From NCBI GenBank assembly GCA_036446375.1, contig JAZFSW010000565.1, forward strand, positions 1-26,038: a stretch of DNA of 26,038 nucleotides. The letters are read 5' to 3'. A program made the translations under genes and the position numbers. The notes under the pieces were generated by a model. That model saw nothing but the letters and a program-made list of their open reading frames with translations. It did no database searches and was not told where the DNA came from. The stretch's first letter is position 1. Every line of letters starts with the position of its first letter. This DNA is from Desulfobacterales bacterium (lineage in GTDB: Bacteria; Desulfobacterota; Desulfobacteria; Desulfobacterales; JAZFSW01). This document shows positions 4,664-26,038 of this stretch, piece by piece.

Positions 4664-5599
4664 CTACCCACCGACTTCCGTTTTCTTGCCGAAGCCGGAC
4701 AGCATTTTTGCCAGCGCCTTCTCTTCATCTTTGGTGTGTGCTACGACCTGCTCCAGCGGGTACGTCTCTCCGATCGACGGATACTTTGCCCCGCTCACCA
4801 CATTGTAGGGCAGAAGGGATATCTTCTCCACCGTATCCAAGGGTGCGACAAACGCGGCGGTCTTCTTCAGGTTCTCTTCCGAATCATTGAATCCCGGTAT
4901 CAGGGGGATCCGCACCCAGACAGGCTTGCCGCGTTGACAAATCTTCTCCAGATTCTCCAGGATCAGCTCGTTTCCGACGCCGGTAAGTTCCTTGTGGCGG
5001 GAACTGTCCATGTGCTTGATGTCATACAGGAAGAGGTCGATATAGGGCAGCATCTCCGACAGAACGGACCATTTCACCTGGCCGCAGGTGTCCAGGGCGG
5101 TATCAATTCCGGCATCCCGGCATGCCTTAAGGCACGCCAGTAGGAATTCGTGCTGCATTGTGGCTTCGCCACCACAGAAGCTCACGCCGCCCCCCGAATT
5201 CCGGTAATAGACCCGGTCCTTCTTGACGACCTCCAGCACCTGTTGGACCGTCATCCATTTCCCGGCCATATCCAGGGACGCGGAGGGACAGACCGGTACG
5301 CAATCCTCGCAGTCATCGCAGCGTTCCCATAGGACGCGCCGGTCCGAGGGGGAGACGATGTGAGCGTCCCGTGGGCACGCGCCGGTACAGGCGCCACAGC
5401 CGATGCATCGGTTGGCCTGGAAGAGGAGCTGCGGCTTTGGCGATATCGACTCAGGGCTGTGGCACCAGACACAGCGGAGCGGGCACCCCTTCATGAATAC
5501 CGTTGTCCGGATCCCCGGTCCGTCTTCGCCGACAAACCTGTCTATTGAGAGTACCAGCCCCTTTGGCGGAGAATCGCTAGGTGCCCGCATATTGTTCAC
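4664..5599 (-). CDS. Glycyl-radical enzyme activating enzyme (radical SAM with a 2x[4Fe-4S] ferredoxin insert)
   Basis: DGPGIRTTVFMKGCPLRCVWCHSPES contains the CxxxCxxC motif. The insert carries CIGCGACTGACP and CDDCEDCVPVCP, followed by GGGVSFCGGE and DLFLYDIKH. It overlaps the GRE stop codon. The start is GTG 5599 or ATG 5590. Confidence 0.95.
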   Translation of the reverse strand: MNNMRAPSDSPPKGLVLSIDRFVGEDGPGIRTTVFMKGCPLRCVWCHSPESISPKPQLLFQANRCIGCGACTGACPRDAHIVSPSDRRVLWERCDDCEDCVPVCPSASLDMAGKWMTVQQVLEVVKKDRVYYRNSGGGVSFCGGEATMQHEFLLACLKACRDAGIDTALDTCGQVKWSVLSEMLPYIDLFLYDIKHMDSSRHKELTGVGNELILENLEKICQRGKPVWVRIPLIPGFNDSEENLKKTAAFVAPLDTVEKISLLPYNVVSGAKYPSIGETYPLEQVVAHTKDEEKALAKMLSGFGKKTEVGG

Positions 5600-7997: not shown

Positions 7998-8084
7998 TAT
8001 CTTGACTCCTTTCCTGCGGGATTCCCCGCTTTCAGGGCGATAGGGCAGGAGGGAATGGGGAACGCCATTGCCGATACAGCCTTT

Positions 8085-8624
8085 CTATGCAAGGACATGC
8101 TTTGCATCGGCGTCAGCATATACCGCCAGAATTTCCCCAAAGTAGATTCGGTGGAAGCCGATTTTGAGACGGCCATAGATACCATCGCGAATCTCATCAG
8201 ACAGATTGTCCGGGAGCACATCGTTCTTATTTACAACCTTGCATTCGTAGTGAATGACACACTCCTCGATTATCGGTGACGTAACCACTCTACCCGGCGT
8301 TGCCGTGAGCCCCCGGACCTTGAACTTGTCCTCATCTCGCCCCGAGACCGTGCCGAAGTACATCACATCGTCCTTGAGGGCAGGTGTCGGAATGTTCACG
8401 GTGAAGTCATTTGTGGTTTCAATCAGACCGTAGGTGTATGTCTGCGGTCGGACGAGCACGCAGAAAATCGGTCTGTTCCAGCTGAACCCGATCGTTCCCC
8501 AGCCGATGGTCATCGCATTCGGTTTCCCCTGGGCGTCTGCCGATGCGAGCAGCAAACCGCCGCGTCCGAGCATCTTGTGCGTTTCCGTCATGTAATCCAA
8601 GTATTTTGCGTCAACTTTTTCCAT
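8085..8624 (-). CDS. Flavin reductase-like FMN-binding protein (flavoredoxin family), 179 aa
   Basis: GKPNAMTIGWG, VLVRPQTYTYGLIE, FTVNIP, GTVSGRDEDKF, SPIIEECVIHYECKV and HRIYFGEI. RBS AGAGGAG present. Confidence 0.88.
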   Translation of the reverse strand: MEKVDAKYLDYMTETHKMLGRGGLLLASADAQGKPNAMTIGWGTIGFSWNRPIFCVLVRPQTYTYGLIETTNDFTVNIPTPALKDDVMYFGTVSGRDEDKFKVRGLTATPGRVVTSPIIEECVIHYECKVVNKNDVLPDNLSDEIRDGIYGRLKIGFHRIYFGEILAVYADADAKHVLA

Positions 8625-8690
8625 TTAAAGATCTCCTCTTCTCCAGTATTGTTTCTGTGGTGTGACAGGTTTCCGGTTGCGGTAGTTCAC

Positions 8691-8787
8691 TTACCACGGA
8701 AAAGCACGGAATGGGTCACGGAAACAGCAAAGATCCGCCCGAAATGCCTTTTTCATTTCAGTGAAATTCCGTGGGAATCCGTGGTAA
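8691..8787. repeat. REP/MITE-like inverted repeat (CACGGAA family)
   Basis: Perfect 10 bp terminal arms ttaccacgga (8691-8700) and tccgtggtaa (8778-8787), with inner cacggaa/ttccgtg arms. Confidence 0.8.
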
Positions 8788-8879
8788 AACCATGTTAGCG
8801 TTTCATTGTTTCTCCCTAGGCTCCTGGAGTCGGCGGTCCGATTTGGGTTGTCCTTAATATGAAACCAAGTCTCCTTCTC

Positions 8880-8942
8880 GACTGGACCGACCCTCCCGCT
8901 TTCAGCGGGACCTCTTGTTTTGGTCGGTGGCCCGGCTCGTAT
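8880..8942 (+). repeat. Dispersed intergenic repeat, family A, copy 2
   Basis: gactgg...ctcccgctttcagcgggacctcttgttttgg...gctcgtat aligns with 21204-21259. Both share the internal hairpin tcccgct-NNN-agcggga. Confidence 0.75.
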
Positions 8943-9007
8943 AGCGATTGGCTGTAATGATATGGCACGCTCCATGGCTTTGTGCAACCCTTTGTGCAAG
9001 ACAGAAC

Positions 9008-11284
9008 TCAGGGCGTATACCATATCGGACTGCTGTAAGCACGGTCCTGGACGACCATCGGGATTTCTTTCGGCACCTTGTCCAGCTTGAAGAACTTCTT
9101 GTCATAGGCAGTCCAGCGGGGTTTCGGGATTTCGATGACCCGGACATAATAGAATGCCAGCTCTGCCGGATCGAAGCTCGGATCGGTCCAGACCACGGCC
9201 AATTCAGGATCGCCGATGCTGTTTTGATAGTTGGCATTCCCCACATCCACTGTCGATCCGACGGATTCGACGCTTCCGCCGTCCCCTGGGATATTCCGGC
9301 CGTCCGAAACCGCAACATCATAGACCTTCTCATGAAGAGAGCCGTCCGATGAGCGCCAGCCTTTGATCACTTGAATCCGGTCGAGATTTGCGCCATCCGG
9401 ATCCTTTGTGGCACGGATGAGGAATTTCGATGAGGCACCCCTGGGGGCATGGGTAAGATCGCCGCCCATGGGCACACCTTTCTCATAGCCGATCCGGGCA
9501 AGGTTCGGACTGAAGGCGTCCTTTCTCTCATAGTTCCATCCACCAAAGAGTCTTAGCGTGATGCGAGGTCCCGTGCTGGCATATACCTCTTTGCGTCGCA
9601 TGGCGTCAAAGAGGGCTTCTCGCGTATTCTCCTTTGCCCACACGGCTGCATAGCCCGAAGCGGAGTACTGCCAGGAATCGTAAATGCGGTAGGCGCTCGG
9701 TTCTACCATCGACGTTTTGCCCCAGAAATTATCTTCAGCCGCTGTGGGCAGGGATGTATGGGAATCCGTCGAGCCGATCATACCGAATTTAAAGGGGTTC
9801 ACACCAAGTTTCACCTGCTGATCCAGTCCCAGCTTGAGGGCCGACCGGGCATACTCAAATCGCTTTTGCTTGACACGATCCTCTGGTGCCAGTTTGCTGA
9901 ACTGCCATCCGTTCCATGTCTCGAAATCCGCAAACTCATCGGTAGGGGACAGAAGGGGATGGGCCTCCCCGTCTCCCTTGAATTGGGTTACTTCGTAGAG
10001 CGGCTCCCAGCGAGACCGGGATCGGGCGTATTCGGTCGTGAAAGGATTCCCGTCCGAATCTTCTAGCTTGAACATCAAGCCGTTGCTCAGATTGCCGTTA
10101 TGGGGAATCGCAAGGACCTTGCCCCCGATGCGCTTTTCGTAATCCTTGAGAACTTCCCACAGATCCTCGATATCCGCGCTGTCGGCATAGGAGAAAGGCA
10201 GAATCCGGCTCGCCTTCGTTGCACCATCCTCGAAAATGACGACGCGGTGATAGTTCGAGGTCTGGGGAGGCAGCGTATACTCGTAACCGATAAAGGCAGT
10301 GAATTTTCCGGGATCGTTGTGCCTGTCCGCGGTGCGGCAGACCTCATCCCACACCGAATGCCGGAAGGTTTCGTCCCTAACGGCATCAGGTCCCCAGGCA
10401 CGCCAGAAGAAGCCCAATCCTGTCGACTGTCCACTTGCCTGCGTCTCCCAAATGGCCGTGCTGCGCTGGTCCGGCGAGCCGGCGTTGAGAACTTGGTTGA
10501 CGTCTAAGGGCATCTTCTTAAGCAATTTGGCCCAACGCCTGCCGATTTCGGTTTTTAGAATCAACGGATCCTCTGCCTGGATGCGCGGCAGAACTCCCAG
10601 GTTTTCCGAATGGTCCGCCACCACGAGGAAATCGAGAGGGCGGCGCAACCGAGCTTTCATCCCGCTGTGGGCGGTGATTAATTCCCCTTTGGCAAATCGG
10701 TATGCGTGGTCCGGTGTCAGGTTCTGATTTCCAAAACCATAGGCGTCAGCAGACATATTGGTGTGAAGGTGGGTATCACCCCAATACACCCGATTCGGAA
10801 AATCCCGGCCGTCCTGGGGAGAATAAGCATGAGATGCCGTGGCAGGCATCACCGTTGGCGGCCAGTCTGCGTCGTCAACGGCGGTTCGGGGTCTGGTCCG
10901 GGATTGCTGTTGGTTCTGGGACATCGCCCTCAGGAGTTCCTCAGTATCCAGATATCCGTCCTTGTTGACGTCAATGAGTTTGAAATGAGGTTTTAGCTCG
11001 GGAGGTGCTTCGTCTTCTACTATCTTGCCGTCCTGGTTGACATCTATTAATCGGAAATATAATCGAAAATCATCCGATAAGGGCTTTCCGGTGCCTCTTC
11101 TCGCCGTTTCCTTGGCTTGCGTTGTCCCATCGGTTTCCCCAATGGCTTGAATGGGGAAAAGTGAAAAAACACAGATCAGTAACACCTTTGAAAGCAGTGT
11201 GGTTAAACGGCAAAAGGCGCTGATTCCATCTACCGCGCGGGCGCGATGGTGACAAATGGCGGGCCAGGTTGTTGTTCCCTTCAT
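9008..11284 (-). CDS. Putative secreted DUF3604-type (PHP-like metal-binding) protein with an N-terminal EF-hand pair, 758 aa
   Basis: A hydrophobic signal-like segment (LLSKVLLICVFSLFPIQAIG) is followed by EF-hand loops DVNQDGKIVEDE and DVNKDGYLDTEE. After that come VYWGDTHLHT, LDFLVVADHSE, FTAFIGYEYT, AIPHNGNLSNG, FGMIGSTDSHT, FYYVRVIEIP and RAYSSPIWYTP, which I recognise as the DUF3604 pattern. Confidence 0.85.
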   Translation of the reverse strand: MKGTTTWPAICHHRARAVDGISAFCRLTTLLSKVLLICVFSLFPIQAIGETDGTTQAKETARRGTGKPLSDDFRLYFRLIDVNQDGKIVEDEAPPELKPHFKLIDVNKDGYLDTEELLRAMSQNQQQSRTRPRTAVDDADWPPTVMPATASHAYSPQDGRDFPNRVYWGDTHLHTNMSADAYGFGNQNLTPDHAYRFAKGELITAHSGMKARLRRPLDFLVVADHSENLGVLPRIQAEDPLILKTEIGRRWAKLLKKMPLDVNQVLNAGSPDQRSTAIWETQASGQSTGLGFFWRAWGPDAVRDETFRHSVWDEVCRTADRHNDPGKFTAFIGYEYTLPPQTSNYHRVVIFEDGATKASRILPFSYADSADIEDLWEVLKDYEKRIGGKVLAIPHNGNLSNGLMFKLEDSDGNPFTTEYARSRSRWEPLYEVTQFKGDGEAHPLLSPTDEFADFETWNGWQFSKLAPEDRVKQKRFEYARSALKLGLDQQVKLGVNPFKFGMIGSTDSHTSLPTAAEDNFWGKTSMVEPSAYRIYDSWQYSASGYAAVWAKENTREALFDAMRRKEVYASTGPRITLRLFGGWNYERKDAFSPNLARIGYEKGVPMGGDLTHAPRGASSKFLIRATKDPDGANLDRIQVIKGWRSSDGSLHEKVYDVAVSDGRNIPGDGGSVESVGSTVDVGNANYQNSIGDPELAVVWTDPSFDPAELAFYYVRVIEIPKPRWTAYDKKFFKLDKVPKEIPMVVQDRAYSSPIWYTP

Positions 11285-11455
11285 ATTGAAGTCTCTCCCC
11301 AGTACAGGGGCTTGGACGGGATAGATTGAAGCGCCCCACCGCAGGCGATCTGAGCGGGCATGCCCTGTTTCAGCTCATCCGAAAACATCGGACTCCGGCG
11401 GTCTCCGAAGAAAGAGGGATTTCGCCCCATGTGATGTTATTTCGGAATCGCCCTA

Positions 11456-12529
11456 CTAGGCCCCAGGACCCGGGGGAATATGATCCGGCGGTCGAACGGC
11501 CTTCATTTTAAGTGCCTCGGCTTCGCAGCCGACAACACACACGCCGCAGCCGAAACACTTCTCACCGTCGACGACGGCCTTGTACTTCTTGCTCCCTTCA
11601 GGCTTCGCCATCTCTATCGCATCAAGAGGACATCGATCAACACAGTCCTGGCAGCCGACGCAATCATCTAGAATGACATGGGGCACGAACCGGCTCTTCG
11701 ACCAGGCCTTATTGAGCGGATAACCCTCCATTTCCATCGGGATGATAATCATGCAGCAATCCCGGCAGCAATTACAGCTGGTGTGAGGACCGACGATACC
11801 GGTGTGGTTGTTATAGGAATGAATGAGACCGTTGTCTTCAGAAAGATCGGCCAGTTCAATCGCCTCGTCAACGCTCAGCCCGCGGCCGGACTCGCTTGCG
11901 ACCGCATAATCGGCGCCTCGACCGAACTGAAAACAGACCGGATGGGCTTCCTCATCGTGCGTCTCACAGGAGTGGCCGGCACCGGCTTCCATATACCGGC
12001 AGCCGCAGGGAACCGTGCTGATTTGCTTCTGGGCCCGGAGTATTTCATGATAGTTCTCCTCGGGGAGAACATCCGGAAGGTCTTTAATTGATTTATAGGC
12101 GGGAATGACCCGCAGGTTGGGTGTCTCATTCGAGTTGTTGAATCCAGCCCATTTGGGGTAATACTCGTTCATGGACCAATCCTTCATTAGCTTAAAGAAC
12201 TTGGTGTTCTCCGCGGGGACCCGCTGAAAACGGGCCTGCACGGATTCAAAGAACTGGCCGTCCGCTCGGGCAAAGTGGTAGTACACCCGGTTCCGGAAAT
12301 CTCCCTTCGGAAAGACAACCCCCTTGAAGAACATCTCGTCAAGCGTCTCTTTTACTTTTTCTATGTCGAATCCTGTCTTTTCGGCCACTTCCTCGGGCGA
12401 TGCGGATAGAGCAGCCACAATCACCACCTGGTCGGGGGTCATCAGGTCCTCCATTACCAGTTTCAAGCGGGAAGATCCTTTGTGGCCCAACCGCTCTACG
12501 AGGCTATCGTATGCTTCATTTGAATTCAT
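11456..12529 (-). CDS. 4Fe-4S dicluster-domain protein with an N-terminal extension and extra Cys clusters, 357 aa
   Basis: C-terminal CVGCQDCVDRCP and CFGCGVCVVGCE ferredoxin motifs, plus PCGCR, HPVCFQFG and SCNCCRDCC. RBS AGGAGG present. Confidence 0.88.
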   Translation of the reverse strand: MNSNEAYDSLVERLGHKGSSRLKLVMEDLMTPDQVVIVAALSASPEEVAEKTGFDIEKVKETLDEMFFKGVVFPKGDFRNRVYYHFARADGQFFESVQARFQRVPAENTKFFKLMKDWSMNEYYPKWAGFNNSNETPNLRVIPAYKSIKDLPDVLPEENYHEILRAQKQISTVPCGCRYMEAGAGHSCETHDEEAHPVCFQFGRGADYAVASESGRGLSVDEAIELADLSEDNGLIHSYNNHTGIVGPHTSCNCCRDCCMIIIPMEMEGYPLNKAWSKSRFVPHVILDDCVGCQDCVDRCPLDAIEMAKPEGSKKYKAVVDGEKCFGCGVCVVGCEAEALKMKAVRPPDHIPPGPGA

Positions 12530-12541
12530 TACGTGTTCCTC

Positions 12542-13459
12542 CTATTTTTTTGTCTTCACAACCGGTGCACCCTCGGCAAAAGAAGCCCATTCTATCGCAT
12601 TGGGGAAGTATTCTGCGTCTTCCAGGCTTGAAATGGCATCCCAATTGTCACGAATGTCTTCTGCGGTTGGCTTGGCGTCGAATTTAACACCGAGGCCGTT
12701 TACAATATTGGCACGACTGTAACGTCCGACACCGGCGTGGATATACATCCCGGTATCTTCGCACTGCTCTGAGCACAGATACATCACCGCCGGTGTAACA
12801 TAGTCCACCGTCGATTTTTCAAATGCATCAGGTGAAAATACGTCTTCGGTGAGCCTCGTGGCGGCCGTGGGCATGAGGGCATTCACTTTGATATTATATT
12901 TGGCTCCTTCAAGTTTCAGAACATTTGTCAGACCGGCCAGCCCCATTTTGGCTGCCCCATAGTTGGTCTGGCCAAACTGACCCAGAATGCCGGAGGTGGA
13001 AGAGGTCATGACGATTCGCCCATAGCCGTTGGCCTTCATATTGTCAAAAGCCGGCCGGGACACACAATAGGCGCCTCGCAGATGAACGGCAATAACGATA
13101 TCCCAGTTTGCCGGCTCCATCTTTAGGAAGGTCTTATCCCTGAGAATACCGGCATTATTCACGACAATATCGACCTTTCCGTAGTTGTCGATAGCGGTCT
13201 TCACGATGTTCTCTCCGCCTTCTACCTCGGCAACGTTGTCGTAATTGGCTGTCGCTTCGCCACCGGCCGCCTTTATTTCGGCTACCACCTCATCGGCAGG
13301 CGTCGCCGCTCCCGCCCCGGATCCATCGCGTGCACCTCCCAGATCATTGACGACAACGCTGGCACCCATTTTGGCAAAATTAAGTGCATAATCTCTTCCG
13401 AGACCGGCGCCCGCACCGGTTACAATTGTCACTCTTCCTGTAAAATCGATTCCTGCCAT
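12542..13459 (-). CDS. SDR family oxidoreductase, MFE-2/FOX2-like (3R)-hydroxyacyl-CoA dehydrogenase type, 305 aa
   Basis: TGAGAGLG, VVVNDLGG, VVNNAGILRDK, YGRIVMTSS and YGAAK. Start set at ATG 13459, behind the RBS AGAGGAG. Confidence 0.9.
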   Translation of the reverse strand: MAGIDFTGRVTIVTGAGAGLGRDYALNFAKMGASVVVNDLGGARDGSGAGAATPADEVVAEIKAAGGEATANYDNVAEVEGGENIVKTAIDNYGKVDIVVNNAGILRDKTFLKMEPANWDIVIAVHLRGAYCVSRPAFDNMKANGYGRIVMTSSTSGILGQFGQTNYGAAKMGLAGLTNVLKLEGAKYNIKVNALMPTAATRLTEDVFSPDAFEKSTVDYVTPAVMYLCSEQCEDTGMYIHAGVGRYSRANIVNGLGVKFDAKPTAEDIRDNWDAISSLEDAEYFPNAIEWASFAEGAPVVKTKK

Positions 13460-13576
13460 TGAAATTTCTCCTCTTTTTCTGTTTGGTGTCCCCATCGGGG
13501 ATGGTTGAAACCATACCGGCCTCTTTACGCAGACCGTATTATGCTGCCGTCGTTTCCGTAATAGTCGATTGACGCA

Positions 13577-14752
13577 TTACGCCTGACCCAACGCGTCTGT
13601 TTTCTTTATACAATCCAGAATATCCTGGGGATCGTAGGAATTGAAGTTCTGATCCGGCATGTCGTAGGCCTTTGGCATCGCTGCCATATTACCGTCCTTG
13701 GCTGCATCTTCTGCCACGAGACGGAGGGTGTCGTCGGTGGTGGATTTTATCCCTAACGCCTCAAGCGTGGTCGGCAAACCGACACTCGTGCAAAAGTTTC
13801 GAACCTTGTCCACCAGCTCGGAATCCGCCGGTTCCATGACCAGCTGAACGAGGGTACCGAATGCGACCAGTTCTCCATGGTAGGGCATCTGGTCGAACTG
13901 GTCGTGGCGATTCCCAAATCCCTGGGCGATGGCATGGGCTGCCGCTAAACCGCCACTCTCATATCCGATGCCGCTGAGCAGGATGTTTGCCTCCGCCACT
14001 TCCTCCAGGGCGGGACCGGCTTTCTTTTCCGCCACCTCTCGGGTGGCCGCCAGACCGTATTCCATCAGAATGTCATAGGCAAGGCGGGCCATTGTCAGGA
14101 CCGTGTGAAGCGCAAATCCGCCGATAACGTTCTGTCTTCCGGACCGATGGACCCTGTCTGCTTCAAAATAGGTTGCCAGCGCATCCCCCATGCCGGCCGC
14201 CAGTGTTCTTACCGGTGCCCGGGCAATAATCTGCGTATCCACCAGCACCAGATTCGGATTCGCCGTGGTCGATACAACGCCCGCCTGGACCCCCTGGGCA
14301 TCGTAAACAACACAGCTCGAAGCGGTGGGTGCATCATTGGACGCAACGGTTGGCACCTGTATGCAGGGGACACCGGCACCGGGGAAAGGGTCCGGCTGCC
14401 AAAGGGGAGGCGCTATCGTAATGGCATTGGTCGCTGCTGCAGCCCGACCGGCGTCCATTACCTTGCCGCCCCCGCAATCGATAATGGCATCATGGCCACC
14501 ATCCAGGCATAGGCCTTTGATCCGATCGATCTCATCGAAGGTACACTCGCGGCCAAACTCGGTGAACGTATGGGCGATATTGCTATGGCCCAGGGCGTCG
14601 GCAAGAATGGTCTCGCAGGCTTTGAGCGCGCTGGGGGAAGCGACAATCAGTGGATTCTTTACGCCAAAGGCCTGAAGATGGACGGCGATCTGCGAAAGCG
14701 CACCCGGCCCCTGGACATATCTTTGGGGTGAAATCATCGTCTTAATGGTCAT
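13577..14752 (-). CDS. Glycerol-dehydrogenase-like (GldA family) metal-dependent polyol dehydrogenase, 391 aa
   Basis: SPQRYVQGPGAL, GGGKVMDAGRA and VPTVASNDAPT. The metal-ligand motifs AGMGDAL, AAAHAI and HGELVAFG are present, followed by VGLPTTL. Confidence 0.88.
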   Translation of the reverse strand: MTIKTMISPQRYVQGPGALSQIAVHLQAFGVKNPLIVASPSALKACETILADALGHSNIAHTFTEFGRECTFDEIDRIKGLCLDGGHDAIIDCGGGKVMDAGRAAAATNAITIAPPLWQPDPFPGAGVPCIQVPTVASNDAPTASSCVVYDAQGVQAGVVSTTANPNLVLVDTQIIARAPVRTLAAGMGDALATYFEADRVHRSGRQNVIGGFALHTVLTMARLAYDILMEYGLAATREVAEKKAGPALEEVAEANILLSGIGYESGGLAAAHAIAQGFGNRHDQFDQMPYHGELVAFGTLVQLVMEPADSELVDKVRNFCTSVGLPTTLEALGIKSTTDDTLRLVAEDAAKDGNMAAMPKAYDMPDQNFNSYDPQDILDCIKKTDALGQA

Positions 14753-14768
14753 CTGTCATTTCTCCTAT

Positions 14769-17771: not shown

Positions 17772-18032
17772 TCAGAACTCCATTCCGCCGGCCACTGCCA
17801 CAACCGCCCCGGTAATCATCCGGGCCTTATCCGAGGCGAGGAAAACCGCAAGGTTCCCGACACCCTCCGGCGTCTGCTCCTCGCCGAGGGGCACCTGCTG
17901 GGCAACCATCCCTTTGAAAATATCCCACTGCGATACATTGGCAAGTTCCGGGTTATTCTGTTTCATCTCGGCCGTCAGCATCTCCCATGCCCTGGTCCAG
18001 AGGAGCCCGGGGCAGAGTTCTCAAAAACTCAC
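17772..18032 (-). pseudogene. SDR relic: a gene start fused to the last ~83 codons of an SDR
   Basis: RBS AGGAG, then GTG AGT TTT TGA (in-frame stop at 18021-18023), then in-frame ELCPGLLWTRAWEML...VPLGEEQTPEGVGNLAVFLASDKARMITGAVVAVAGGMEF. This is an SDR C-terminus lacking the Rossmann fold and the YxxxK motif. Confidence 0.82.
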
Positions 18033-18041
18033 AGGATCTCC

Positions 18042-19004
18042 TTATTCCAATACCGCTTCGATGGCGGCCAAGACATCCTGGGGCTGGGGTAGAACTTCGG
18101 TTTCCAGGAAACCACCGGCAATGGGCAGGTTTGCCGCCGCCACCCTCTTAACCGGAGCATCCAGGTAGTCGAAGGCTTGCTCCATGATCTGAGAGGCGAT
18201 TTCACCGGTGACGCCGCATCGCAGCGTATCTTCATCAACCACCACCGCTCGACCGGTTTTCTTGACCGATTCGACAATGGTATCGATGTCGAAGGGTTCC
18301 AGGGTCCTCGGATCGATCACTTCGACACTGGCCTTATCCTTCAGTTTCTCTGCCGCTTGCAGGGCGAAATGAACCATTTGCCCGATGGCCACCACGGTTA
18401 CGTCCGATCCTTCCCGTTTGATATCCGCCTGGCCAAAGGGAATGGTATATTCCTCTTCGGGGACGTCCCCCGTAAGTCCAAACAATGCCTTGTGGTAGAA
18501 ATAGACCACCGGATTGTTGTCCCTGATGGCGGTTTTCATAAGACCCTTTGCATCGTAGGGGGTTGAGGGCACGACCAGTTTAAGTCCCGGGGTGTGCATA
18601 ACGACCGATTCAGGACATTGGGAGTGTTCCGGTCCTAATTTGAAACCACCGCCCATGGCGGCCAAGAAGACCACCGGCACATTGACTTTCTTGCCGTGGA
18701 GAAAATGCCACTTGGCTGCCTTCATAAAGATTTCATCTCCGGCGATCCACATAAAATCGGCGAACATAAAATCAGCCACCGGGCGATACCCGCACATGGC
18801 GGCCCCGATTGCGGCTCCGGCCACTGCCGTTTCTGCCAGAGGCGTATCCATGATGCGGTCCGGTCCGAACTGCTGGACCAAGCCACTGGTTTCGCCAAAG
18901 GTTCCCGCCTGAATGTCTTCGCCAATGCAGAATACCTTTTCATCTCGCTGCAATTCTTCTTTGAGGGCCTCGTTAATGGCCCCGGTCAGGGATAGTTGTC
19001 TCAT
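18042..19004 (-). CDS. ThDP-dependent dehydrogenase E1 beta subunit, 320 aa
   Basis: AINEALKEELQRD, IGEDI, DTPLAETAVAG, EHSQCPE, PSTPYDAKGLMKTAIRDNNPV and LDAPVKRVAA. RBS AAGGAGAGG present. Confidence 0.93.
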   Translation of the reverse strand: MRQLSLTGAINEALKEELQRDEKVFCIGEDIQAGTFGETSGLVQQFGPDRIMDTPLAETAVAGAAIGAAMCGYRPVADFMFADFMWIAGDEIFMKAAKWHFLHGKKVNVPVVFLAAMGGGFKLGPEHSQCPESVVMHTPGLKLVVPSTPYDAKGLMKTAIRDNNPVVYFYHKALFGLTGDVPEEEYTIPFGQADIKREGSDVTVVAIGQMVHFALQAAEKLKDKASVEVIDPRTLEPFDIDTIVESVKKTGRAVVVDEDTLRCGVTGEIASQIMEQAFDYLDAPVKRVAAANLPIAGGFLETEVLPQPQDVLAAIEAVLE

Positions 19005-19097: not shown

Positions 19098-20075
19098 TCA
19101 GTCGGCATACAGAGAGGCCCTCATAAGGGAAGCATCCGGCATGCCGCCTTCCGTCGCTTCGCGGTCCATTTCCGCTGCGGTCTCCTCCAGCTCCTTGTCG
19201 ATGCTTTCAATGTCCGCTTCGGTCAGCACCTGTTGTTCAATCAGTTTTTTCGCAAACGATTCGATCGGGTCTCGTTTCTTGAACGCTTCCACAATTTCGG
19301 GGGGTCTCGCTTCAATATGAAAAATATCGGGGGACCCTTCCGAATGGGTCCTGTATCGGGTGGTTTTCCCCTCGACCAGGGTCGGTCCGTCTCCGGCCCG
19401 GGCTCTTTCCACCGCCGCCTGCACGACTTCTTGCACCGCCAGAACGTCCATGCCGTCCACCACCACCCCCGGCATGTCGTAGCCCGCTGCCAGATCGGCG
19501 ATATCCTCCTTGGGGTAGGCATCCTTGATGGGGGTGTATTGGGCAACGCCGTTATTGTCGCAAACCCAGACGATGGGTAGTTTCCAAAGAGCCGAGAGGT
19601 TGAATGCTTCGTGTAGGGTTCCGCGGTTGGAACTACCGTCACCAAAGCAACCCACCGCCACTTGGGCCCGGCCGTTCTTCTTGGCGGCCAAACCCCAGCC
19701 GAGGGTCATGGGAAACACGGAACCGATGGTTCCGGCTGCTCCCAGGACTCCCTTGGAGGGATCAGCGTTGTGAAACCCGGTGAAACCATTGCAGGAACCG
19801 TTTGCTTTCCCGTAGTGCTCGGCGAGGAATTCCATGCCTGAACCTCCTTTGGAAAGGAGGTAGACGATACCGTGGCCCCGATGATGACAGTATATATAAT
19901 CGTCATCGTTCAAGAACGAGGCGACCCCTGCCGCCAATCCTTCCGACCCCTGGCCACTGTGGTAAAAGGCCAGAACTTTCCCCGTTGCCATTCCAGCGAT
20001 GACTAACTGATCGATCTTTCGGCCCAACAGCATGTTTCTGTACAACAAAATCAGATCTTCTTTAGCAAGCGTCAT
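19098..20075 (-). CDS. ThDP-dependent dehydrogenase E1 alpha subunit, 325 aa
   Basis: HSGQGSE, HHRGHG, GDGSSNRG...CDNNG (ThDP motif), VDGMDV and TTRYRTHSEG. RBS AGGAGG present. Confidence 0.93.
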   Translation of the reverse strand: MTLAKEDLILLYRNMLLGRKIDQLVIAGMATGKVLAFYHSGQGSEGLAAGVASFLNDDDYIYCHHRGHGIVYLLSKGGSGMEFLAEHYGKANGSCNGFTGFHNADPSKGVLGAAGTIGSVFPMTLGWGLAAKKNGRAQVAVGCFGDGSSNRGTLHEAFNLSALWKLPIVWVCDNNGVAQYTPIKDAYPKEDIADLAAGYDMPGVVVDGMDVLAVQEVVQAAVERARAGDGPTLVEGKTTRYRTHSEGSPDIFHIEARPPEIVEAFKKRDPIESFAKKLIEQQVLTEADIESIDKELEETAAEMDREATEGGMPDASLMRASLYAD

Positions 20076-20242: not shown

Positions 20243-20428
20243 CTATGAACGGCTTCCGCTATACTTGAGGCTGAATCCGGTAGACAACATTTCGCCCGAA
20301 ATCTCGTCGCCCTCTACGGTCCCCGTAACCGTCATCTGCATCGGCCCCGCAGGACCGGTAGCATCAAAGGTTACTGAAAAACTGTTGCCGTCCACCGTTC
20401 CGCCGTCAAAGGGTGTTTCGCTGATATC
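20243..20428 (-). pseudogene. 3' fragment of a small all-beta protein or domain, truncated at its 5' end by a repeat element
   Basis: DISETPFDGGTVDGNSFSVTFDATGPAGPMQMTVTGTVEGDEISGEMLSTGFSLKYSGSRS* is protein-like, with alternating beta-strand patterning. It has no RBS or ATG, and the ORF-track TTG start lies inside non-coding repeat-like DNA. Confidence 0.55.
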
Positions 20429-20490
20429 GTATGTCGAACGTCTTGCCAACCGCTATAACGCCGTAGATGGAGACTTTTTACGACGCCATC
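20429..20490 (-). repeat. One half of a GATGGC..CGTAAAAAGTC-type intergenic element
   Basis: The minus strand reads gatggcgtcgtaaaaagtctccatctacggcgtt...tcgacatac, starting at the RraA stop codon. No matching inverted end is seen nearby. The family assignment is from my recollection of deltaproteobacterial repeats. Confidence 0.5.
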
Positions 20491-21163
20491 AGTATTTGCC
20501 CATCATAAAATCCTCTGCATTGTAATCCGGTGACTGGCAATAGTCGATGATGCGCCGCTCGCCGTCTTCCACTTTCTTACACGCATCGGGTACTTCCCGG
20601 GCAATATCGTGGGGAATTGATACCACCCCGTGTTTGTCGGCGTGGAGCAGATCACCGTTATTCACCAGAAGGCCGCCCACTGTCACCGGTATTGCCGCAT
20701 CAACGATATGTGCATAGGCGTGGGTGGGAATCACGTCGGCAGCAAAGAAATGGAAAATCAGATCCCGGACTTCGTCCAGGTCCCGCACGCCGCCATCGGT
20801 AATAACGCCCAAACAACCGAGAGCTTTATGGATATTGCCGTTCACTTCTCCCCACAAGGAGCCGATACACTTGGGCTCATCCAGATCCTGGATAACGACA
20901 ATCCGGGGACCTTGTGTCGCATGGATATTGGCCCAGTGCTGCGGTGTCCCCCCCCAATCTCCTTTTGGAAGCGGGGTATTGGCCACTATCGTTGCCGTGC
21001 AGGCGTAGCCGACCATCGGTTCGAATTCCGGATACATGCACCGGATACCCAGCATAAATCCTTCGTTTCGGGGTCTGACGTCAAATTCCTCGATCGCATT
21101 GGCAATTGCGGGTGTCGGCCATGCTCCAAGGGCCTGAAACTCTGCATCTGTTAAAGGTTCCAT
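20489..21163 (-). CDS. RraA family / 4-hydroxy-4-methyl-2-oxoglutarate aldolase-like protein, 224 aa
   Basis: TPAIANAIE, MVGYACT, IVVIQD, SLWGEVN, GVITDGGVRDLDEV and GDLLHADKHGVVSIP. RBS GGAGG present. Confidence 0.88.
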   Translation of the reverse strand: MEPLTDAEFQALGAWPTPAIANAIEEFDVRPRNEGFMLGIRCMYPEFEPMVGYACTATIVANTPLPKGDWGGTPQHWANIHATQGPRIVVIQDLDEPKCIGSLWGEVNGNIHKALGCLGVITDGGVRDLDEVRDLIFHFFAADVIPTHAYAHIVDAAIPVTVGGLLVNNGDLLHADKHGVVSIPHDIAREVPDACKKVEDGERRIIDYCQSPDYNAEDFMMGKY

Positions 21164-21187
21164 GTATCTTCCTCCGTTTATTTTCTG

Positions 21188-21420
21188 GTTTCTTTCCCGA
21201 TCAGACTGGTCTCCCGCTTACAGCGGGACCTCATGTTTTGCCAGAGGCGGTGCTCGTATGAAACTACGTTTCAGGGTTCAGGGTTTTGGGTTCAAAGGTT
21301 CAGGGCTTGGTCCTTCATTTCACGCCTGGGCGTGATTGGGCGTTCGATGTTGGACGTTCAGCTCTTGCTCCGTTTCTTCGCCGATCAGACGGGCCGTTTT
21401 TGGGCCGAGGCGGCGCTTAT
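21188..21420 (+). repeat. Composite intergenic repeat block: family A copies 3 and 4 flanking short-period repeats
   Basis: gatcagac...gcc(a/g)..ggcgg.gct copies at 21188-21260 and 21382-21420. ggtt-cored 7-8-mers (cagggtt, cagggtt, ttgggtt, caaaggtt) at about 21272-21306, and gttcgatgttggacgttc at about 21342-21359. Confidence 0.72.
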
Positions 21421-21427
21421 CCGGTGA

Positions 21428-22444
21428 CTATCCCCATTTTGTACTTGGCGGAAGCGTTAGCGCTTGGGGCACATCGATATTGGTGGGAATACCTTCTTCT
21501 TCGAAGATACGGTCAATCGCTGCACGGTCCGCCTCGGTCAGCGTCCATTCTGCGGCGACAACATTTTCAACGAGCTCTTTCTCATTGCGCATGCCGACCA
21601 GGGAGACAGTAACCGCCGGGTTGCCGATCGCCCAGGCGATCGCCAGCTGGGCCAGCGTCTTTCCGTAGCCCGCTGCAAGTTCGGCAAGCCGTTCACCAAG
21701 CTTAAGCTCTTTGAGGATAACCTCGCGGTCCAACAGCGGTAGCCCGAAGGCCTGTGTGTGGCTTCGCCAATCGTCGTCGCCGAAGGTCGTCTCTGGTGTT
21801 ATTTCGCCGCTAAGCAGTCCGAAGGCAAGGGTGCCGTAACCCATGAAGGCGATACCGCTCTCAAGGCAATAAGGGAACATCTCTTTCTCCATGCGACGGT
21901 CGAGTAGGTTATAGCCCACCTGGGAGGTTGTCAAATCGCCGCTCTTCCGAGCGGTTTCCAGCATTGCAGGATCATGGTTGGAAAGACCCCAGTGGCGGAT
22001 TTTGCCATCCTTCTTGAGCTGTTCCAGTGCTCCGACGGTTTCCTCAAGGGGTGTCGTGTGGTCCGCCAATGAATTAAATGCAGGTCGATGACGTCCGTCT
22101 GAAGCCGTTTCAGGCAGCCTTCAGTCCGTTCGATAACGTTGTCATGCTTGGAATTCAGGCCCATGACGTAGCCTTCAGGGGCGAAACCGAAGCCGACCTT
22201 GCTGACCAAGGTAATGTCTTTGCGCTTGTCCCCTAGTGCTTTGGCAAGGAGCTCTTCCGAGTTGAAGGGCCCGTAGCACTCGGGCGGTGTCAATAAGGGT
22301 GATGCCATGGTCGATAGCAGCGTGAATAGCCCGGGTTACCTCATCGGGATCAATATCTCCGTAGTCCGTCATGCTCATCTCCCAGGTACCGAAACCGATG
22401 GGAGAACAGGTTAGATCCGTATTCCCCATTGTGCGTTGTTCCAT
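21428..22444 (-). pseudogene. Aldo/keto reductase, about 338 aa, interrupted by two compensating frameshifts (pseudogene or sequencing error)
   Basis: Three overlapping ORFs join into one AKR: IGFGTWEM...LIDTA / ECYGPFNSEELLAKAL...SKVG...LKRLQTDVIDLHLIHW / PDHTTPLEETVGAL...GLSN...QVGYNLLDRR. There is an extra C near 22283 (gcccgag) and a missing C near 22065 (tggcggac). Confidence 0.9.
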
Positions 22445-22479
22445 AATGTAGCTTCCTCGTCTGTTATGGCATTTGTAGA

Positions 22480-23202
22480 TTATGCGACAAGCAATAACCC
22501 CACGGTGGAAGCGCAGGGAATCTCATCCGGGGTGTTGGTGTGGCCCCCAATGTAGACCATATCCCAGCCAAGAGGCAGAATCGTACCGATGACATCAATG
22601 GCCATTGCTTCCATAGCCGGCCGGACCTTCAGGAAATTGCGGCACGTCTTGCCTTTAAGTACGGCGCAATCGGGGCTCTCACCCGTAAAACCACATGTGC
22701 CCGTCTGCAAGCCGGTGCAGGGACCGGCCGAAAAACTCACCGCCTGTCTGTAGCCCATGCTGTTGGCCCAGGCCTCGATCTGGTTGCAGACACCGGTGTT
22801 GTCTATGAAATGGCCTCTCACGTTTTTCACCCAATTTGGCACGAAAGACGGGTCCTCTTCAGTAAAGGCGTCCGGTTTCATAGAGAAATCCTCCACAGGA
22901 ACATCCATCTGGAACACAATTCCGTACCGGAAGCTGTGGATCACCCTTCGACACTCATCAACCGGCGGTGTATTTGGTGGACAATTGGGACTGCTGCCGA
23001 TGCCGAAACAAATCGGGTAGAGGCATTTCCAGCGGACCTTCTCATCCACGATAATGTCTTTTGCCGAGATGACAGCCGCCCGGTTGACACCTTCCAACCC
23101 TTCCATCTTCTTACGCAGCGTCTCCAGGTCTTCTTGCAGCTGCACCTCAAAGGCTTTTTCGGCCTGATACGTCGGCATGAAGTCTTTCTTGATTTTTGTC
23201 AC
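22480..23202 (-). CDS. DUF2284-type Cys-rich predicted metal-binding protein, 240 aa
   Basis: IIVDEKVRWKC-x4-C...SPNCPP, AGPC, C...CRNFLKVRPAMEAMAIDV. GTG start behind RBS GAGGAGG. Confidence 0.78.
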   Translation of the reverse strand: MTKIKKDFMPTYQAEKAFEVQLQEDLETLRKKMEGLEGVNRAAVISAKDIIVDEKVRWKCLYPICFGIGSSPNCPPNTPPVDECRRVIHSFRYGIVFQMDVPVEDFSMKPDAFTEEDPSFVPNWVKNVRGHFIDNTGVCNQIEAWANSMGYRQAVSFSAGPCTGLQTGTCGFTGESPDCAVLKGKTCRNFLKVRPAMEAMAIDVIGTILPLGWDMVYIGGHTNTPDEIPCASTVGLLLVA

Positions 23203-23523: not shown

Positions 23524-24855
23524 CTAGGATACCTCCGGCGCGGCCTCTTCGAGAGAAAGGCGGCTCGTTTCGGGCAGGCATTTTGCCACGATCACCGGCG
23601 CCAGAAATGCGACTACGGCGAGGTATGGTATCGCATCCCAATGGGAGCCGACTAAGTCATAGAAACGGGATTCGGCCCACAAACCGACAACGCTGCCAAG
23701 CGTTACCAGAACCGTCACGGCGCCCGAGGCGGTTGATCTGTAGGATGTGGGGAACAACTCGTTTCCGAAGACATTCAGGACCACCTTTCCGCCATTGCCG
23801 AAGAATAACATGCCGACCCATAGCGGGGGGAGAAACCAGCCAGACCCCTTGTAGAAACCGATTACAAAGAGCGGATGCAGCAGCAGAAAGATTCCTGCAA
23901 TTCGACGGCGCCCCTTTCGATCGGACAACCTTCCCGCCCACGCATTTCCCATTAAGGGGACGAGTCCACCGACGAATGACAACGCTGAGAAATGCCAAGG
24001 CGCCCAACCGTGGGCCTCCTGCAAATACTTTGGGGTAAAAAACACCGATGCGCTTGTCGAAAAAGCGAGTAGGAGGGACACACTGCCGATAGCTGCAAAC
24101 CGACCGGGATACATCTTTACCAGATTCAGAATGGGTGTGATAGAATCTCGAACGAAGCTTTGGGCCGCCTTCTGGTCCCTGTGGTTCTCGAAGCGTTTTG
24201 TTTCCGGCATGGATCTTCGAAGCCAGGCGACAATAGCCAACGGCAGCAATCCCACGAGATACATGGCTCTCCAGCCCATCGGTAACTTATCGATAAAGGC
24301 AAAAAGCAAAAGCGCAAGTCCGCCACCAAGGCTGCCGACAGCTGCCAGCGCTCCGGTCGCCCAGCCGCGATGCTCGGATTCGATCTCCTCTGCAATCACC
24401 ACATAGGCCAGTGCCACTTCAGCAACGGCAAAGGCCCGGGCTAGAAACTGAAACATGATAAAGGTTTTTGCATCCGTTGAAAACGCAGTTGCCCCGGTGA
24501 GGATCGTGTAACCCACTATGGTGAACAGCAGTATCTGCCGCCGGCCGAAGCGATCTGCAGCAATCGACAAAAGGACCGCCGGAAACGCGCCCATGCTAAC
24601 AAATGCACCCAATTCCCCAAGTCTGTTTTCCGGGATGCTCAAGGCCTCCTGGATTTGCTTCAAAGCCAGCGAAAACAAGTAAACATCATATGTCTCAAAG
24701 ACGGTTACAATGAAGATGAGAGCCAGCAACTTCCACTGTCTGGCAGTTAAGGCGGGGGCTTTGCCGAGCCAAGGGAAGTTTTTCATCCACTTGGCAACGT
24801 ACTTTTCATCGCCATCGGGATCATCCTGCTGATGCTGCATGTCTTCCACTATCAA
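23524..24855 (-). CDS. Major facilitator superfamily transporter (organic acid/aromatic acid-type)
   Basis: About 12 hydrophobic segments, with MFS motif A in both halves (ADRFGRRQIL and LSDRKGRRRI), VIAEEIESEHRG and ELFPTSYRSTASG. The exact start (TTG 24855, GTG 24849 or ATG 24840) is uncertain. Confidence 0.92.
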   Translation of the reverse strand: MIVEDMQHQQDDPDGDEKYVAKWMKNFPWLGKAPALTARQWKLLALIFIVTVFETYDVYLFSLALKQIQEALSIPENRLGELGAFVSMGAFPAVLLSIAADRFGRRQILLFTIVGYTILTGATAFSTDAKTFIMFQFLARAFAVAEVALAYVVIAEEIESEHRGWATGALAAVGSLGGGLALLLFAFIDKLPMGWRAMYLVGLLPLAIVAWLRRSMPETKRFENHRDQKAAQSFVRDSITPILNLVKMYPGRFAAIGSVSLLLAFSTSASVFFTPKYLQEAHGWAPWHFSALSFVGGLVPLMGNAWAGRLSDRKGRRRIAGIFLLLHPLFVIGFYKGSGWFLPPLWVGMLFFGNGGKVVLNVFGNELFPTSYRSTASGAVTVLVTLGSVVGLWAESRFYDLVGSHWDAIPYLAVVAFLAPVIVAKCLPETSRLSLEEAAPEVS

Positions 24856-24886
24856 CTCCCCGTCACTTCCATCAAACAGCGGGCCA

Positions 24887-26038
24887 TTAACCGCCAGCGT
24901 ATTGCTCGCATTTCTGAATCTGGTAGGTCTGCATTTCCGGTGCCAGGTCTGTAAAATAGCCCTGGAAGCCGCCGATTCTTATCTTCAAGTCCTTATATTT
25001 TTCCGGCTCTTTTTGGGCCGCCTTGAGCTTTTCACAGTCGTTGATGCTGATGGTGAGCAGTTCGCCTCGTTTTTCTACAAATGAAGTGATGTAGGCTTCT
25101 AACTGGTTGAGCAGACTGGCGCGGTTATCCATAGCAACATCCAAAGGGGCGCCGTTGGGTACGTCAACCAAGGGCAGTTTGCAGTAGGAATTGAGGGCTG
25201 CTGTTTGACCGTTTGCGGCCCTGCCAACCGAAGGCGAAGCGTTTGAGCTGATTGGCTGGTGGTCAAGGCGGCCATCGGGCGTAGCACCGATAATGCCGCC
25301 AACAGGGACATAGGACTGGAAAGTGCCCAGCGCAACGGGGAATTTGAGATGGCTGTTTTTCACCCGATCGGCATAGTAGCGCACCCTCTCAACGCAGTAC
25401 GCGACGATTTCCCGGGCGATATCGTCCGGGAAATCATCGTCGTTGCCATAGGCCGGGACTTTTGTCATCACCAATTGCCGGAGGGGCTCTTTGTCCTGCC
25501 AGTTGTCTTTGACGGCATCCAGCATCTCCGGCAAGGGGATGGCCTTTTCGTCAAAACACAGTTTCTTAATGGCCGCAAGGGAATCGGCTGTGTGGGATAG
25601 CCCGGAGAAAACAGGCGCATGGAAATTGTGCGTTACACCCTCTAAAGTCAGGTCTTTTCCGGATTCAATCGGGCCTTCCATCAGGGCCGATATCAGCGGC
25701 AGCGGCGCGATTTCATAGAGACGCTCATCCCGGAACTCATCGATGCACTCGATAAACCGTCCGATGTGCCGGTCCAGCCGCTCTTTGAATGACGCCATGA
25801 GTTCTTCAAAAGATCCCATGCCGTAGGCATCCGGCGGTGTGGCGCCGGCGTAGGGATCAAACGCTTCCACGTAGGGACGAGCAAATGGTGGTTGAACATC
25901 ACCTTCCCACCTTTCCGGAAACAGCGCCCGGTCCAAAGCCTCCACAAGGTTGATCATACCGTATTTAAAGTTGGTTCTTCCCTGGGAATAGATCTCCCAG
26001 CAGCCGTCACTGGTATAATCCCTTGCATGCTCAATCGA
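24887..26038 (-). CDS. Glycyl radical enzyme, second paralog; C-terminal 383 aa only, the gene continues beyond the window
   Basis: The frame stays open to the window edge (SIEHARDYTSDGCWEIYSQGRTNFKYGMINL...). It has the same DGCWE and IRIGGF loops as 5577-7997, with 284 of 356 residues identical by manual alignment. Confidence 0.95.
   Translation of the reverse strand, partial: SIEHARDYTSDGCWEIYSQGRTNFKYGMINLVEALDRALFPERWEGDVQPPFARPYVEAFDPYAGATPPDAYGMGSFEELMASFKERLDRHIGRFIECIDEFRDERLYEIAPLPLISALMEGPIESGKDLTLEGVTHNFHAPVFSGLSHTADSLAAIKKLCFDEKAIPLPEMLDAVKDNWQDKEPLRQLVMTKVPAYGNDDDFPDDIAREIVAYCVERVRYYADRVKNSHLKFPVALGTFQSYVPVGGIIGATPDGRLDHQPISSNASPSVGRAANGQTAALNSYCKLPLVDVPNGAPLDVAMDNRASLLNQLEAYITSFVEKRGELLTISINDCEKLKAAQKEPEKYKDLKIRIGGFQGYFTDLAPEMQTYQIQKCEQYAGG

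Follow-up and report, generated by a model that had tools for sequence, protein, structure and literature searches.

A glycyl radical enzyme and its activase as the conserved unit of a probable gene mosaic in a Desulfobacterales contig

The window analysed here is the whole stretch of 26,038 nucleotides of contig JAZFSW010000565.1 from a Desulfobacterales bacterium (assembly GCA_036446375.1). Between 4664 and 26038 it carries a run of catabolic genes of about 21 kb on the minus strand, with two oxygen-sensitive glycyl radical enzymes (GREs) of the DGCWE type, the full-length GRE1 and the incomplete GRE2. In a preliminary description this run had been read as a single anaerobic pathway for diols or polyhydroxy acids, with a mosaic of unrelated modules as the fallback. 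The pathway proposal was not supported, as the neighbours of the GRE are not conserved beyond the activase and the genes of the xanthine dehydrogenase (XDH) family and of the thiamine diphosphate (ThDP) dependent E1 pair belong to other operons. The fallback proved to be the better reading: relics lie within the run, partner subunits are encoded elsewhere, and the GRE and its activase alone are conserved. Our best explanation, to which we assign a probability of roughly 0.68, is therefore a mosaic that holds an uncharacterised GRE-activase module, predicted to be a polyol or sugar C-O lyase. As regards the run itself, it is quite probable that catabolic modules without relation to each other, some of them broken, have come together here in a genome rich in GREs. 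The one conserved unit in it is the DGCWE GRE together with its own activase. Because nothing beyond the activase is conserved, partners are missing, scars are present and paralogues are many, a mosaic is preferred over a single pathway.

Conservation of the GRE neighbourhood

Genome and metagenome scans yielded 158 loci, of which 14 (the core loci) hold a GRE that shares 45% identity or more with GRE1, and the neighbours in the window were matched to these loci by tblastn (E 1e-5). Conservation around orthologous GREs had been named beforehand as the test that could refute the single pathway. The activase alone is found repeatedly, in 10 of the 14 core loci, and it is also the only match in a fifteenth locus (L234). 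RraA and the SDR were each found in one core locus, both at 29% identity, with this RraA located beside the GRE of L019. In none of the 14 core loci did tblastn match the flavin reductase, DUF3604, Fe-S, GldA, MoaD, XDH, E1 alpha, E1 beta, aldo-keto reductase (AKR), DUF2284 or MFS genes. The actual neighbours vary from locus to locus and include a DapA-type aldolase, sugar ABC and TRAP transporters, sulfatases, RraA with an Ldh_2 dehydrogenase, corrinoid methyltransferases and acyl-CoA enzymes.

A GRE and its activase are a textbook pair. The activases beside the 10 core GREs are 51-79% identical to the one in the window, as compared to at most 46.5% in 96 other loci, and thus the pairing is real. 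At the sequence level, a dedicated activase appears to co-diverge with the DGCWE clade.

Closer orthologues were searched with at most two candidates scored per genome. One was found in 400 other genomes of the order, none in 390 of the class and one in 390 of the phylum, none of them above 55% identity; 63 plasmid records gave no match at the DGCWE level (best about 31%). In the case of GldA, the best homologues in 250 genomes of the order reach 40-46%, and seven homologue loci (about 40% identical, from 20 genomes with a match) contain no window genes, which is weak evidence owing to the low identity.

Origin of the E1 pair and the molybdenum subunit

In a reverse test, orthologues of the XDH-family subunit (65-69% identity) were found in 4 of 250 other genomes of the order, and E1 orthologues in 5 of 250. 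In four of five XDH loci, a [2Fe-2S] gene adjoins the Mo subunit; the FAD subunit and XdhC were each confirmed in two. All three E1 loci with listed open reading frames (ORFs) continue into E2 (L213, L214, L217; orthologues 47-64%), two of them also carry a LipB-like gene and a zinc alcohol dehydrogenase, and one carries E3, while two other E1 loci were compared by tblastn only. The five XDH and five E1 loci hold no GRE and no other window gene, except for one SDR at 31%.

The E1 pair is thus orthologous to that of an acetoin/2-oxoacid dehydrogenase operon (E1 alpha-E1 beta-E2-LipB-ADH-E3), with 64% and 74% identity to relatives, and the Mo subunit to that of an XDH-family operon ([2Fe-2S]-Mo-FAD-XdhC). 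Unlike in both operons, the genes in the window are separated from their partners: orthologues of E2 and LipB are located on contig C638 of the same genome (53-62%), and those of the [2Fe-2S] and FAD subunits on contig C569 (65-66%). The window has no E2/E3, [2Fe-2S] or FAD subunit genes, so that these multi-subunit enzymes are incomplete in the run. The Mo enzyme and ThDP E1 pair listed previously are therefore present, but the former as a large subunit alone and the latter without E2/E3. Since the partner genes flank the orthologues elsewhere and sit on C638 and C569 here, both modules look as if they were cut from their own operons. If they work at all, the E1 pair and the Mo subunit would do so with partners from these two contigs.

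Breakage and genomic background of the run

Several genes in the run are damaged. The AKR is present as described, but split over three frames by two frameshifts. Two contigs of relatives from other samples span the first of these sites with one gap each, so this frameshift may be private to the assembly. SDRs had been reported in the plural; one is intact, whereas the second is a C-terminal relic with an internal stop, beginning no more than about 25 nt from the stop codon of E1 beta. At 20424-20500, the left part of an inverted-repeat element of about 165 nt is fused to the tail of a small gene. The copy in the window ends near the 62nd base, and full-length copies exist on other contigs.

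Six gaps of 167-383 nt interrupt the run, and four hold repeats that are present on 7-55 contigs; apart from the element at 20424-20500, these repeats occupy 8625-9007, 11390-11455 and 21164-21427. A 14-bp hairpin follows MoaD, with overall hairpin counts at chance level. Promoter and terminator counts in the window equal the shuffled expectation (12 vs 12.0 and 24 vs 20.9).

The single strand of the run was correctly described, but this co-directionality is not far beyond chance for this genome, in which 1079 of 1518 adjacent long-ORF pairs share a strand. The chance of 13 or 15 same-strand ORFs in a row is 0.017 or 0.008 per start. With 14 co-directional ORFs the run is the longest of the genome, yet it lies on the longest contig, and shorter contigs reach 10, 10 and 9. 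The window is the entire contig C565, the longest of 684 in a fragmented and repeat-rich assembly (N50 5.7 kb; genome of 3.5 Mb, 78% complete), and its GC content is even over the whole run. Genome-wide there are 22 matches to pyruvate formate-lyase (PFL)-like proteins, some of which are halves, and homologues of the SDR, Fe-S and DUF3604 genes occur on 24, 9 and 6 contigs. With so many PFL-like, SDR, crotonase, Fe-S and DUF3604 paralogues, a chance juxtaposition of catabolic genes is easy.

The DGCWE family of glycyl radical enzymes

GRE1 consists of a PFL-like barrel and a C-terminal glycyl radical domain (PF02901, PF01228). It scores below every NCBIfam GRE cut-off (90-408 bits vs 678-1150), and thus identities as CutC, HypD, HpfG, HpsG, PflD, IAD, HPAD or PFL were discarded. 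Its AlphaFold2 model (pLDDT 91.5) has the GRE fold, and the nearest structures are those of glycerol and propanediol dehydratases (TM 0.77-0.78, 25-28% identity). Among 120 listed homologues, 110 carry GC[W/F]E and 97 DGCWE; of 145 newly listed representatives at 50% identity, 30 over 600 aa carry the motif. In a FastTree phylogeny (107 sequences, 703 columns, rooted on PflB), the DGCWE clade has a support of 1.0 and contains none of the nine references, namely glycerol dehydratase, a propanediol dehydratase-like GRE from a microcompartment locus, CutC, two HypD, an HpsG-type sequence, PflD, YbiW and PflB. Six of the 30 motif sequences fall outside this clade and three sequences without the motif fall inside. 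Grouping with the glycerol/propanediol dehydratases was rejected on the basis of this separate clade. The tree was built without IslA, HplG, HpyG/HpzG, BSS and the decarboxylases, which score 209-407 bits against the family profile, as compared to 514 for glycerol dehydratase.

According to record titles, carriers include Deltaproteobacteria, Chloroflexota, Spirochaetes, SAR324, Planctomycetota, Armatimonadota and a named Clostridium. Among the kin of the host the family is rare, yet the genome studied here holds, besides GRE1 and GRE2, a paralogue with 54% identity on C73 and the 5' half of a GRE on C673. The ESM Atlas returned generic PFL-like clusters only. A search of titles and abstract beginnings, with supplements and subscription papers outside its scope, found no literature on a GCWE-type glycyl radical clade, which may appear unnamed in published similarity networks; a term search of PMC11528403 found no matching passage. 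As far as comparisons with solved structures and NCBIfam show, the clade does not seem to be among the classes of a 2026 review (PMC13450708), whose section 7 describes entire GRE clades without experimental validation.

We lean towards the view that, irrespective of the neighbouring genes, the reaction of the DGCWE family is one not yet described. The 21-kb run is probably not a discovery target, and its pursuit as one pathway would mislead. The DGCWE clade is the target, with its distinct Cys loop, rebuilt pocket, own activase lineage and many anaerobic lineages. Recently opened GRE clades have given new anaerobic chemistry, e.g. anhydroglycolysis.

Active site and proposed chemistry

Mapped onto glycerol dehydratase, Gly780, Cys436, Glu438 and His118 of GRE1 correspond to Gly763, Cys433, Glu435 and His164. 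In the clade, the Cys and the Glu are kept in 49 of 49 sequences and the His in 45 of 49. The Cys-X-Glu (CXE) loop of 1,2-eliminases and isomerases is present as Cys436-Trp437-Glu438. Around this core the pocket is changed: His281 is replaced by Asn232, Tyr339 by Leu342, Val434 by Trp437, Tyr640 by Gly661 and Ser642 by Phe663. An equivalent of Asp447 was not seen in GRE1, where the corresponding strand aligns ambiguously and holds no Asp. Hence, of the glycerol/propanediol dehydratase pocket (His164, His281, Ser282, Tyr339, Asp447, Tyr640) only His164 is kept, and this identity was rejected. The last five of these residues, which we take to line the pocket of glycerol dehydratase, are present in the reference sequence; His164 is assigned to it in PMC13450708. 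Given the rebuilt pocket (Asn232, Leu342, Trp437, Gly661, Phe663), the substrate of GRE1 is likely not glycerol or propanediol.

The closest known systems are glycerol dehydratase (1R8W) and the GRE-type 1,2-propanediol dehydratases (5I2G, 9RCO), which are the best sequence, profile and structure matches. They share with GRE1 the adjacent activase, the CXE loop and the His164 equivalent; GRE1 differs by the low identity, by GCWE instead of GCVE, by a long insertion before the Tyr339 strand and by its separate clade. In anhydroglycolysis, the CXE isomerases YbiW and PflD open the rings of sugars and thereby supply aldolases (PMC13450708, section 5.7). Similarly, aldolases (transaldolase/FSA, DapA-type or RraA) and sugar transporters occur in DGCWE loci. 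In contrast, YbiW and PflD lie outside the DGCWE clade, with 21-24% identity in the structure search, and DGCWE loci show ABC, TRAP and MFS transporters.

The sulfonate lyases IslA, IseG and HpsG, common in sulfate reducers, have the CXE eliminase mechanism in common with GRE1. They were nevertheless rejected, because the sulfonate anchor of two Arg and one Gln is absent (reference: HpsG-type sequence L015). In GRE1, His118 occupies the Gln site and neither Arg site has an Arg, as compared to the Arg/Gln/Arg anchor given in section 5.6.3 of PMC13450708. Pyruvate formate-lyase was rejected since GRE1 has Gly435-Cys436-Trp437, without a second adjacent Cys. X-succinate synthases and HPAD were rejected as well, because flavin reductase and activase directly flank GRE1 and no gene for a small Fe-S subunit is present among ORFs of at least 60 aa.

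According to PMC13450708, CXE is common to GRE eliminases and isomerases, and in glycerol dehydratase the Glu deprotonates the substrate hydroxyl and His164 protonates the leaving group. By analogy with glycerol dehydratase and YbiW (PMC13450708, sections 5.6-5.7), the activase would install the radical on Gly780, from which it would move to Cys436, and Cys436 would take the hydrogen from the carbinol carbon. Glu438 would act as the base on the hydroxyl of this carbon and His118 would supply a proton to the leaving OH or ring oxygen, so that the product would be a deoxy-ketone or an aldehyde. On this analogy, C-O cleavage is the somewhat favoured chemistry of GRE1, and we infer that GRE1 would dehydrate a polyol, or open its ring, with a substrate that is larger or more apolar. 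The diol or polyhydroxy substrate proposed earlier finds independent support at the family level, in the kept CXE and His residues, the dehydratases as nearest structures and the enrichment of sugar genes.

Sugar genes in the family loci

Sugar ABC transporters, transketolase, transaldolase, and tagaturonate and ribulose-phosphate epimerases flank many family members, as do Gfo/Idh/MocA or zinc dehydrogenases. Among 30 family loci with a length of 8 kb or more, 18 carry markers of sugar catabolism (16 if self-matches are excluded), vs 9 of 76 other GRE loci; the unassigned L048 and L172 are left out of this count. We regard this enrichment as a lead.

Different types of loci could be distinguished. 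In the wider clade, a compact operon recurs in L033, L044, L106, L031 and L114, and in part in L104, L105 and L110. It comprises a GntR regulator, GRE, activase, a Gfo/Idh/MocA dehydrogenase, an acetolactate-synthase-like ThDP enzyme, an SDR and an iron-containing alcohol dehydrogenase, often with aldehyde:ferredoxin oxidoreductase and sugar ABC genes. Its Gfo/Idh/MocA protein matches levoglucosan dehydrogenase with an exponent of 58, below cut-off. The compact L033/L044/L106 operons are a better entry to the substrate than this window. Gut-type contigs (L115, L116, L128) show a conserved set of activase, GRE, metallo-hydrolase, AtuA-family protein and aldehyde dehydrogenase. In L098 (1579-10309), a core GRE lies amid corrinoid proteins, a URO-D-family methyltransferase, two MtmB-like methylamine methyltransferases and a TRAP transporter, hinting at a methylated substrate for that member.

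Weighing the alternative explanations

A number of observations count against the mosaic with its predicted C-O lyase. Only 5 of the 14 core loci reach 12 kb, most of their GREs are 46-55% identical to GRE1, and among the 71-85% orthologues (P0002-P0008) only L096 (76%, 4.2 kb) was read. With such short loci and few close orthologues, a cluster conserved just in the subfamily of GRE1 would be missed. A remote DUF3604 (L018) and an MFS (L100) escaped tblastn but were detected by Pfam, and the RraA of L019 and an E1 pair in the wider-clade locus L024 lie in GRE loci too. Several sub-blocks of the run have gaps below 100 nt. In four marine runs, DNA 80-99% alike covers 29-30 of the 30 bins of the region in each; the Logan contigs listed for these runs are pieces of at most 700 nt, too short to follow the order of the genes along the whole run. 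In one low-depth contig, E1 beta is joined to XDH and the SDR relic is lacking; in two others (two runs, one study), the E1 beta of the plus strand is joined to the end of the activase. These joins and the marine coverage imply that some gene order may be stable in relatives. Regarding the chemistry, the pocket positions vary over the clade, so that DGCWE members may act on different substrates, and GRE1 lacks the Lys and Arg (positions 325, 330) common in the inserted loop of other core members. The sugar markers were picked post hoc, from loci that are not independent and with interrelated controls.

A recently assembled, coherent pathway for diols or polyhydroxy acids, with missing subunits borrowed from other loci, would rely on the MFS for import and on the GREs for dehydration; GldA and SDR would convert diol and acyloin into each other, C-C bonds would be cleaved by E1 and RraA, and oxidation of the aldehyde would fall to the Mo enzyme. 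The single strand, the two GREs of one clade that bracket the run and the E2/LipB and [2Fe-2S]/FAD partners in the genome fit this scheme. Moreover, marine relatives hold nearly all parts, and family loci elsewhere carry analogous aldolases, dehydrogenases, ThDP enzymes and aldehyde oxidoreductases. We nevertheless consider it quite unlikely, as only the activase is conserved, deletion scars, a broken AKR, repeat-filled gaps and a strong hairpin after MoaD lie within the run, and the E1 and XDH orthologues sit in other operons. Similarly improbable is the bolder version, in which DGCWE enzymes are a new C-O lyase class and the two copies here captured importer, diol dehydrogenases, aldolase, E1 pair and Mo oxidoreductase into a new pathway. 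Another, though doubtful, reading limits the functional units to sub-blocks, namely GRE2-MFS and flavin reductase-GRE1-activase as a small GRE module, with GldA-SDR-FeS, XDH-MoaD and E1 alpha-E1 beta as separate units. The gaps within these blocks are short (GRE2-MFS 31 nt; flavin reductase-GRE1 87 nt and GRE1-activase -23 nt; GldA-SDR 81 nt and SDR-FeS 12 nt; XDH-MoaD 24 nt; E1 alpha-E1 beta 93 nt), and in a contig of run X1 (depth 3) the end of the flavin reductase gene is connected with the region where the activase starts. Against it stand the 14 core loci, in which tblastn matched neither MFS nor flavin reductase and in which TRAP and ABC transporters are found instead. It is compatible with the best explanation, to which it adds MFS and flavin reductase as partners.

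Regarding the reaction itself, DGCWE enzymes could do other radical chemistry in an apolar pocket, such as aryl or alkyl acetate decarboxylation or amine C-N cleavage. Trp437, Phe663 and Leu342 make the pocket more apolar, equivalents of His281, Asp447 and Tyr640 are lost, and CXE is used by HPAD and CutC too (PMC13450708, sections 5.4 and 5.6.2). Furthermore, sugar genes are lacking in the core loci L098, L099 and L020, which have genes for methylamine methyltransferase/corrinoid or acyl-CoA proteins. This chemistry appears unlikely in view of the profile scores of the decarboxylases and succinate synthases (209-301 bits vs 514 for glycerol dehydratase), the His kept at glycerol dehydratase position 164, where CutC has an Asp, the lack of a small-subunit gene beside GRE1 and the sugar genes enriched family-wide. 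Finally, unrelated pieces could have been joined at repeats by mis-assembly of part of the contig. The fragmented, repeat-rich assembly, the repeats in four gaps and two single-base AKR frameshifts would agree with this. It is very unlikely, since the scars are half-repeats and diverged relics and not whole repeat copies, short contigs from other samples bridge GRE1-activase and E1 alpha-E1 beta, and the GC content is even. Altogether, a mosaic with one conserved GRE-activase module remains the preferred explanation.

Gene content of the window and further observations

The gene list of the preliminary description was borne out, as Pfam and NCBIfam profiles found every claimed family on the minus strand between 4664 and 26038 (two GREs, activase, MFS, GldA-like iron-containing alcohol dehydrogenase, AKR, SDR, E1 alpha and beta, RraA, XDH-family Mo subunit, ThiS/MoaD, 4Fe-4S protein and flavin reductase). 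The run additionally carries DUF3604 and DUF2284 genes. Of the two GREs, GRE1 is full-length, but GRE2 is represented by its 3' 383 codons only. A GRE fragment at a contig end of C673 (residues 1-373, 76% identity) may be the missing half of GRE2. The MFS beside GRE2 is a possible importer of the GRE substrate.

Table 1. Features of the gene run, with positions in the window
Feature	Position	Strand	Evidence and remarks
GRE activase, radical SAM with ferredoxin-like insert	4664..5599	-	TIGR02494 above cut-off; overlaps GRE1 end by 23 nt
GRE1, full-length DGCWE-type glycyl radical enzyme, 806 aa	5577..7997	-	PF02901 + PF01228; Cys436, Glu438, Gly780, His118
Flavin reductase-like protein, 87 nt upstream of GRE1	8085..8624	-	PF01613
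Intergenic repeat elements	8625..9007	.	60 matches on 52 contigs
DUF3604 protein with EF-hands	9008..11284	-	profile match
4Fe-4S dicluster protein	11456..12529	-	profile match
Intact SDR, PRK07791-like	12542..13495	-	profile match
GldA-like iron-containing alcohol dehydrogenase	13577..14752	-	PRK09423 above cut-off
ThiS/MoaD-family sulfur carrier	14976..15254	-	PF02597; 14-bp hairpin after it, 14964-14933
XDH-family molybdenum-binding subunit alone	15279..17723	-	PF01315/PF02738/PF20256
SDR C-terminal relic, internal stop	17772..18041	-	75% DNA / 74% aa to intact SDR C531:12308-12553
ThDP E1 beta	18042..19004	-	PF02779/PF02780
ThDP E1 alpha (acetoin/2-oxoacid dehydrogenase type)	19098..20075	-	PF00676
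Deletion scar: inverted-repeat left part fused to small-gene tail	20243..20500	-	element on 55 contigs; tail matches longer ORF on C425
RraA/HMG-aldolase-like protein	20489..21163	-	PF03737
Intergenic repeat elements	21164..21427	.	70 matches on 51 contigs
AKR, frameshifts near 22285 and 22065 (pseudogene or assembly error)	21428..22444	-	three PF00248 pieces, three frames
DUF2284 metal-binding protein	22480..23202	-	PF10050
MFS transporter, 31 nt after GRE2	23524..24855	-	PF07690
GRE2, 3' half of second DGCWE GRE, cut by contig end	24887..26038	-	81% aa identity to GRE1

At least three further intergenic repeat families were noted (2180-2580, 8690-8940, 21175-21314 and 11390-11455, on 80, 52, 51 and 7 contigs). 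Some share a short hairpin and sit upstream of genes in the same orientation. An Rfam scan of the window gave two chance-level matches below gathering score, and thus the repeats are not a known RNA; they could be MITEs or an unknown leader RNA. A GGDEF relic after the MFS was discarded, as it has no Pfam or genome support. A flavin reductase paralogue on C91 (3838-4094, 71-77%) has lost an internal segment, which again points to the decay of genes in this genome. In the runs X1 and X3, single contigs over 5585-8107 link the flavin reductase end, or the GRE1 start, to the activase start region (depth 3-5), which suggests GRE1 deletion derivatives in relatives.

Eleven further GREs of the genome form a separate, lineage-expanded clade (support 1.0; C81, C412, C531, C581, C237, C391, C679, C218), three of them in tandem on C81. 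Their Cys loops are GCNE, GCHE, GCLE, GCVE and GCIE, often with Lys and not Arg before the radical Gly. Other GREs of the genome without an RVAG match were considered as aminoacyl radical enzymes and rejected, since they carry Lys-Val-Ala/Ser-Gly. The radical residue is Gly, with no Ala, Ser or Thr, in both window GREs and in 14 other GREs of the genome of at least 550 aa for which C-termini were printed. Only three activase-like genes were found in the genome vs the 22 PFL-like matches. A single dsrA fragment lies at a contig end, below cut-off.

Outside the run, the window carries a crotonase-family enoyl-CoA hydratase at 191-1021 on the minus strand, with homologues on 36 contigs, and a plus-strand ORF of 162 aa without Pfam match (1727-2215). 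A second E1 alpha/beta pair without E2 lies on the plus strand (2582-4594), converging on the activase, and its E1 alpha is only 30% identical to the minus-strand E1 alpha.

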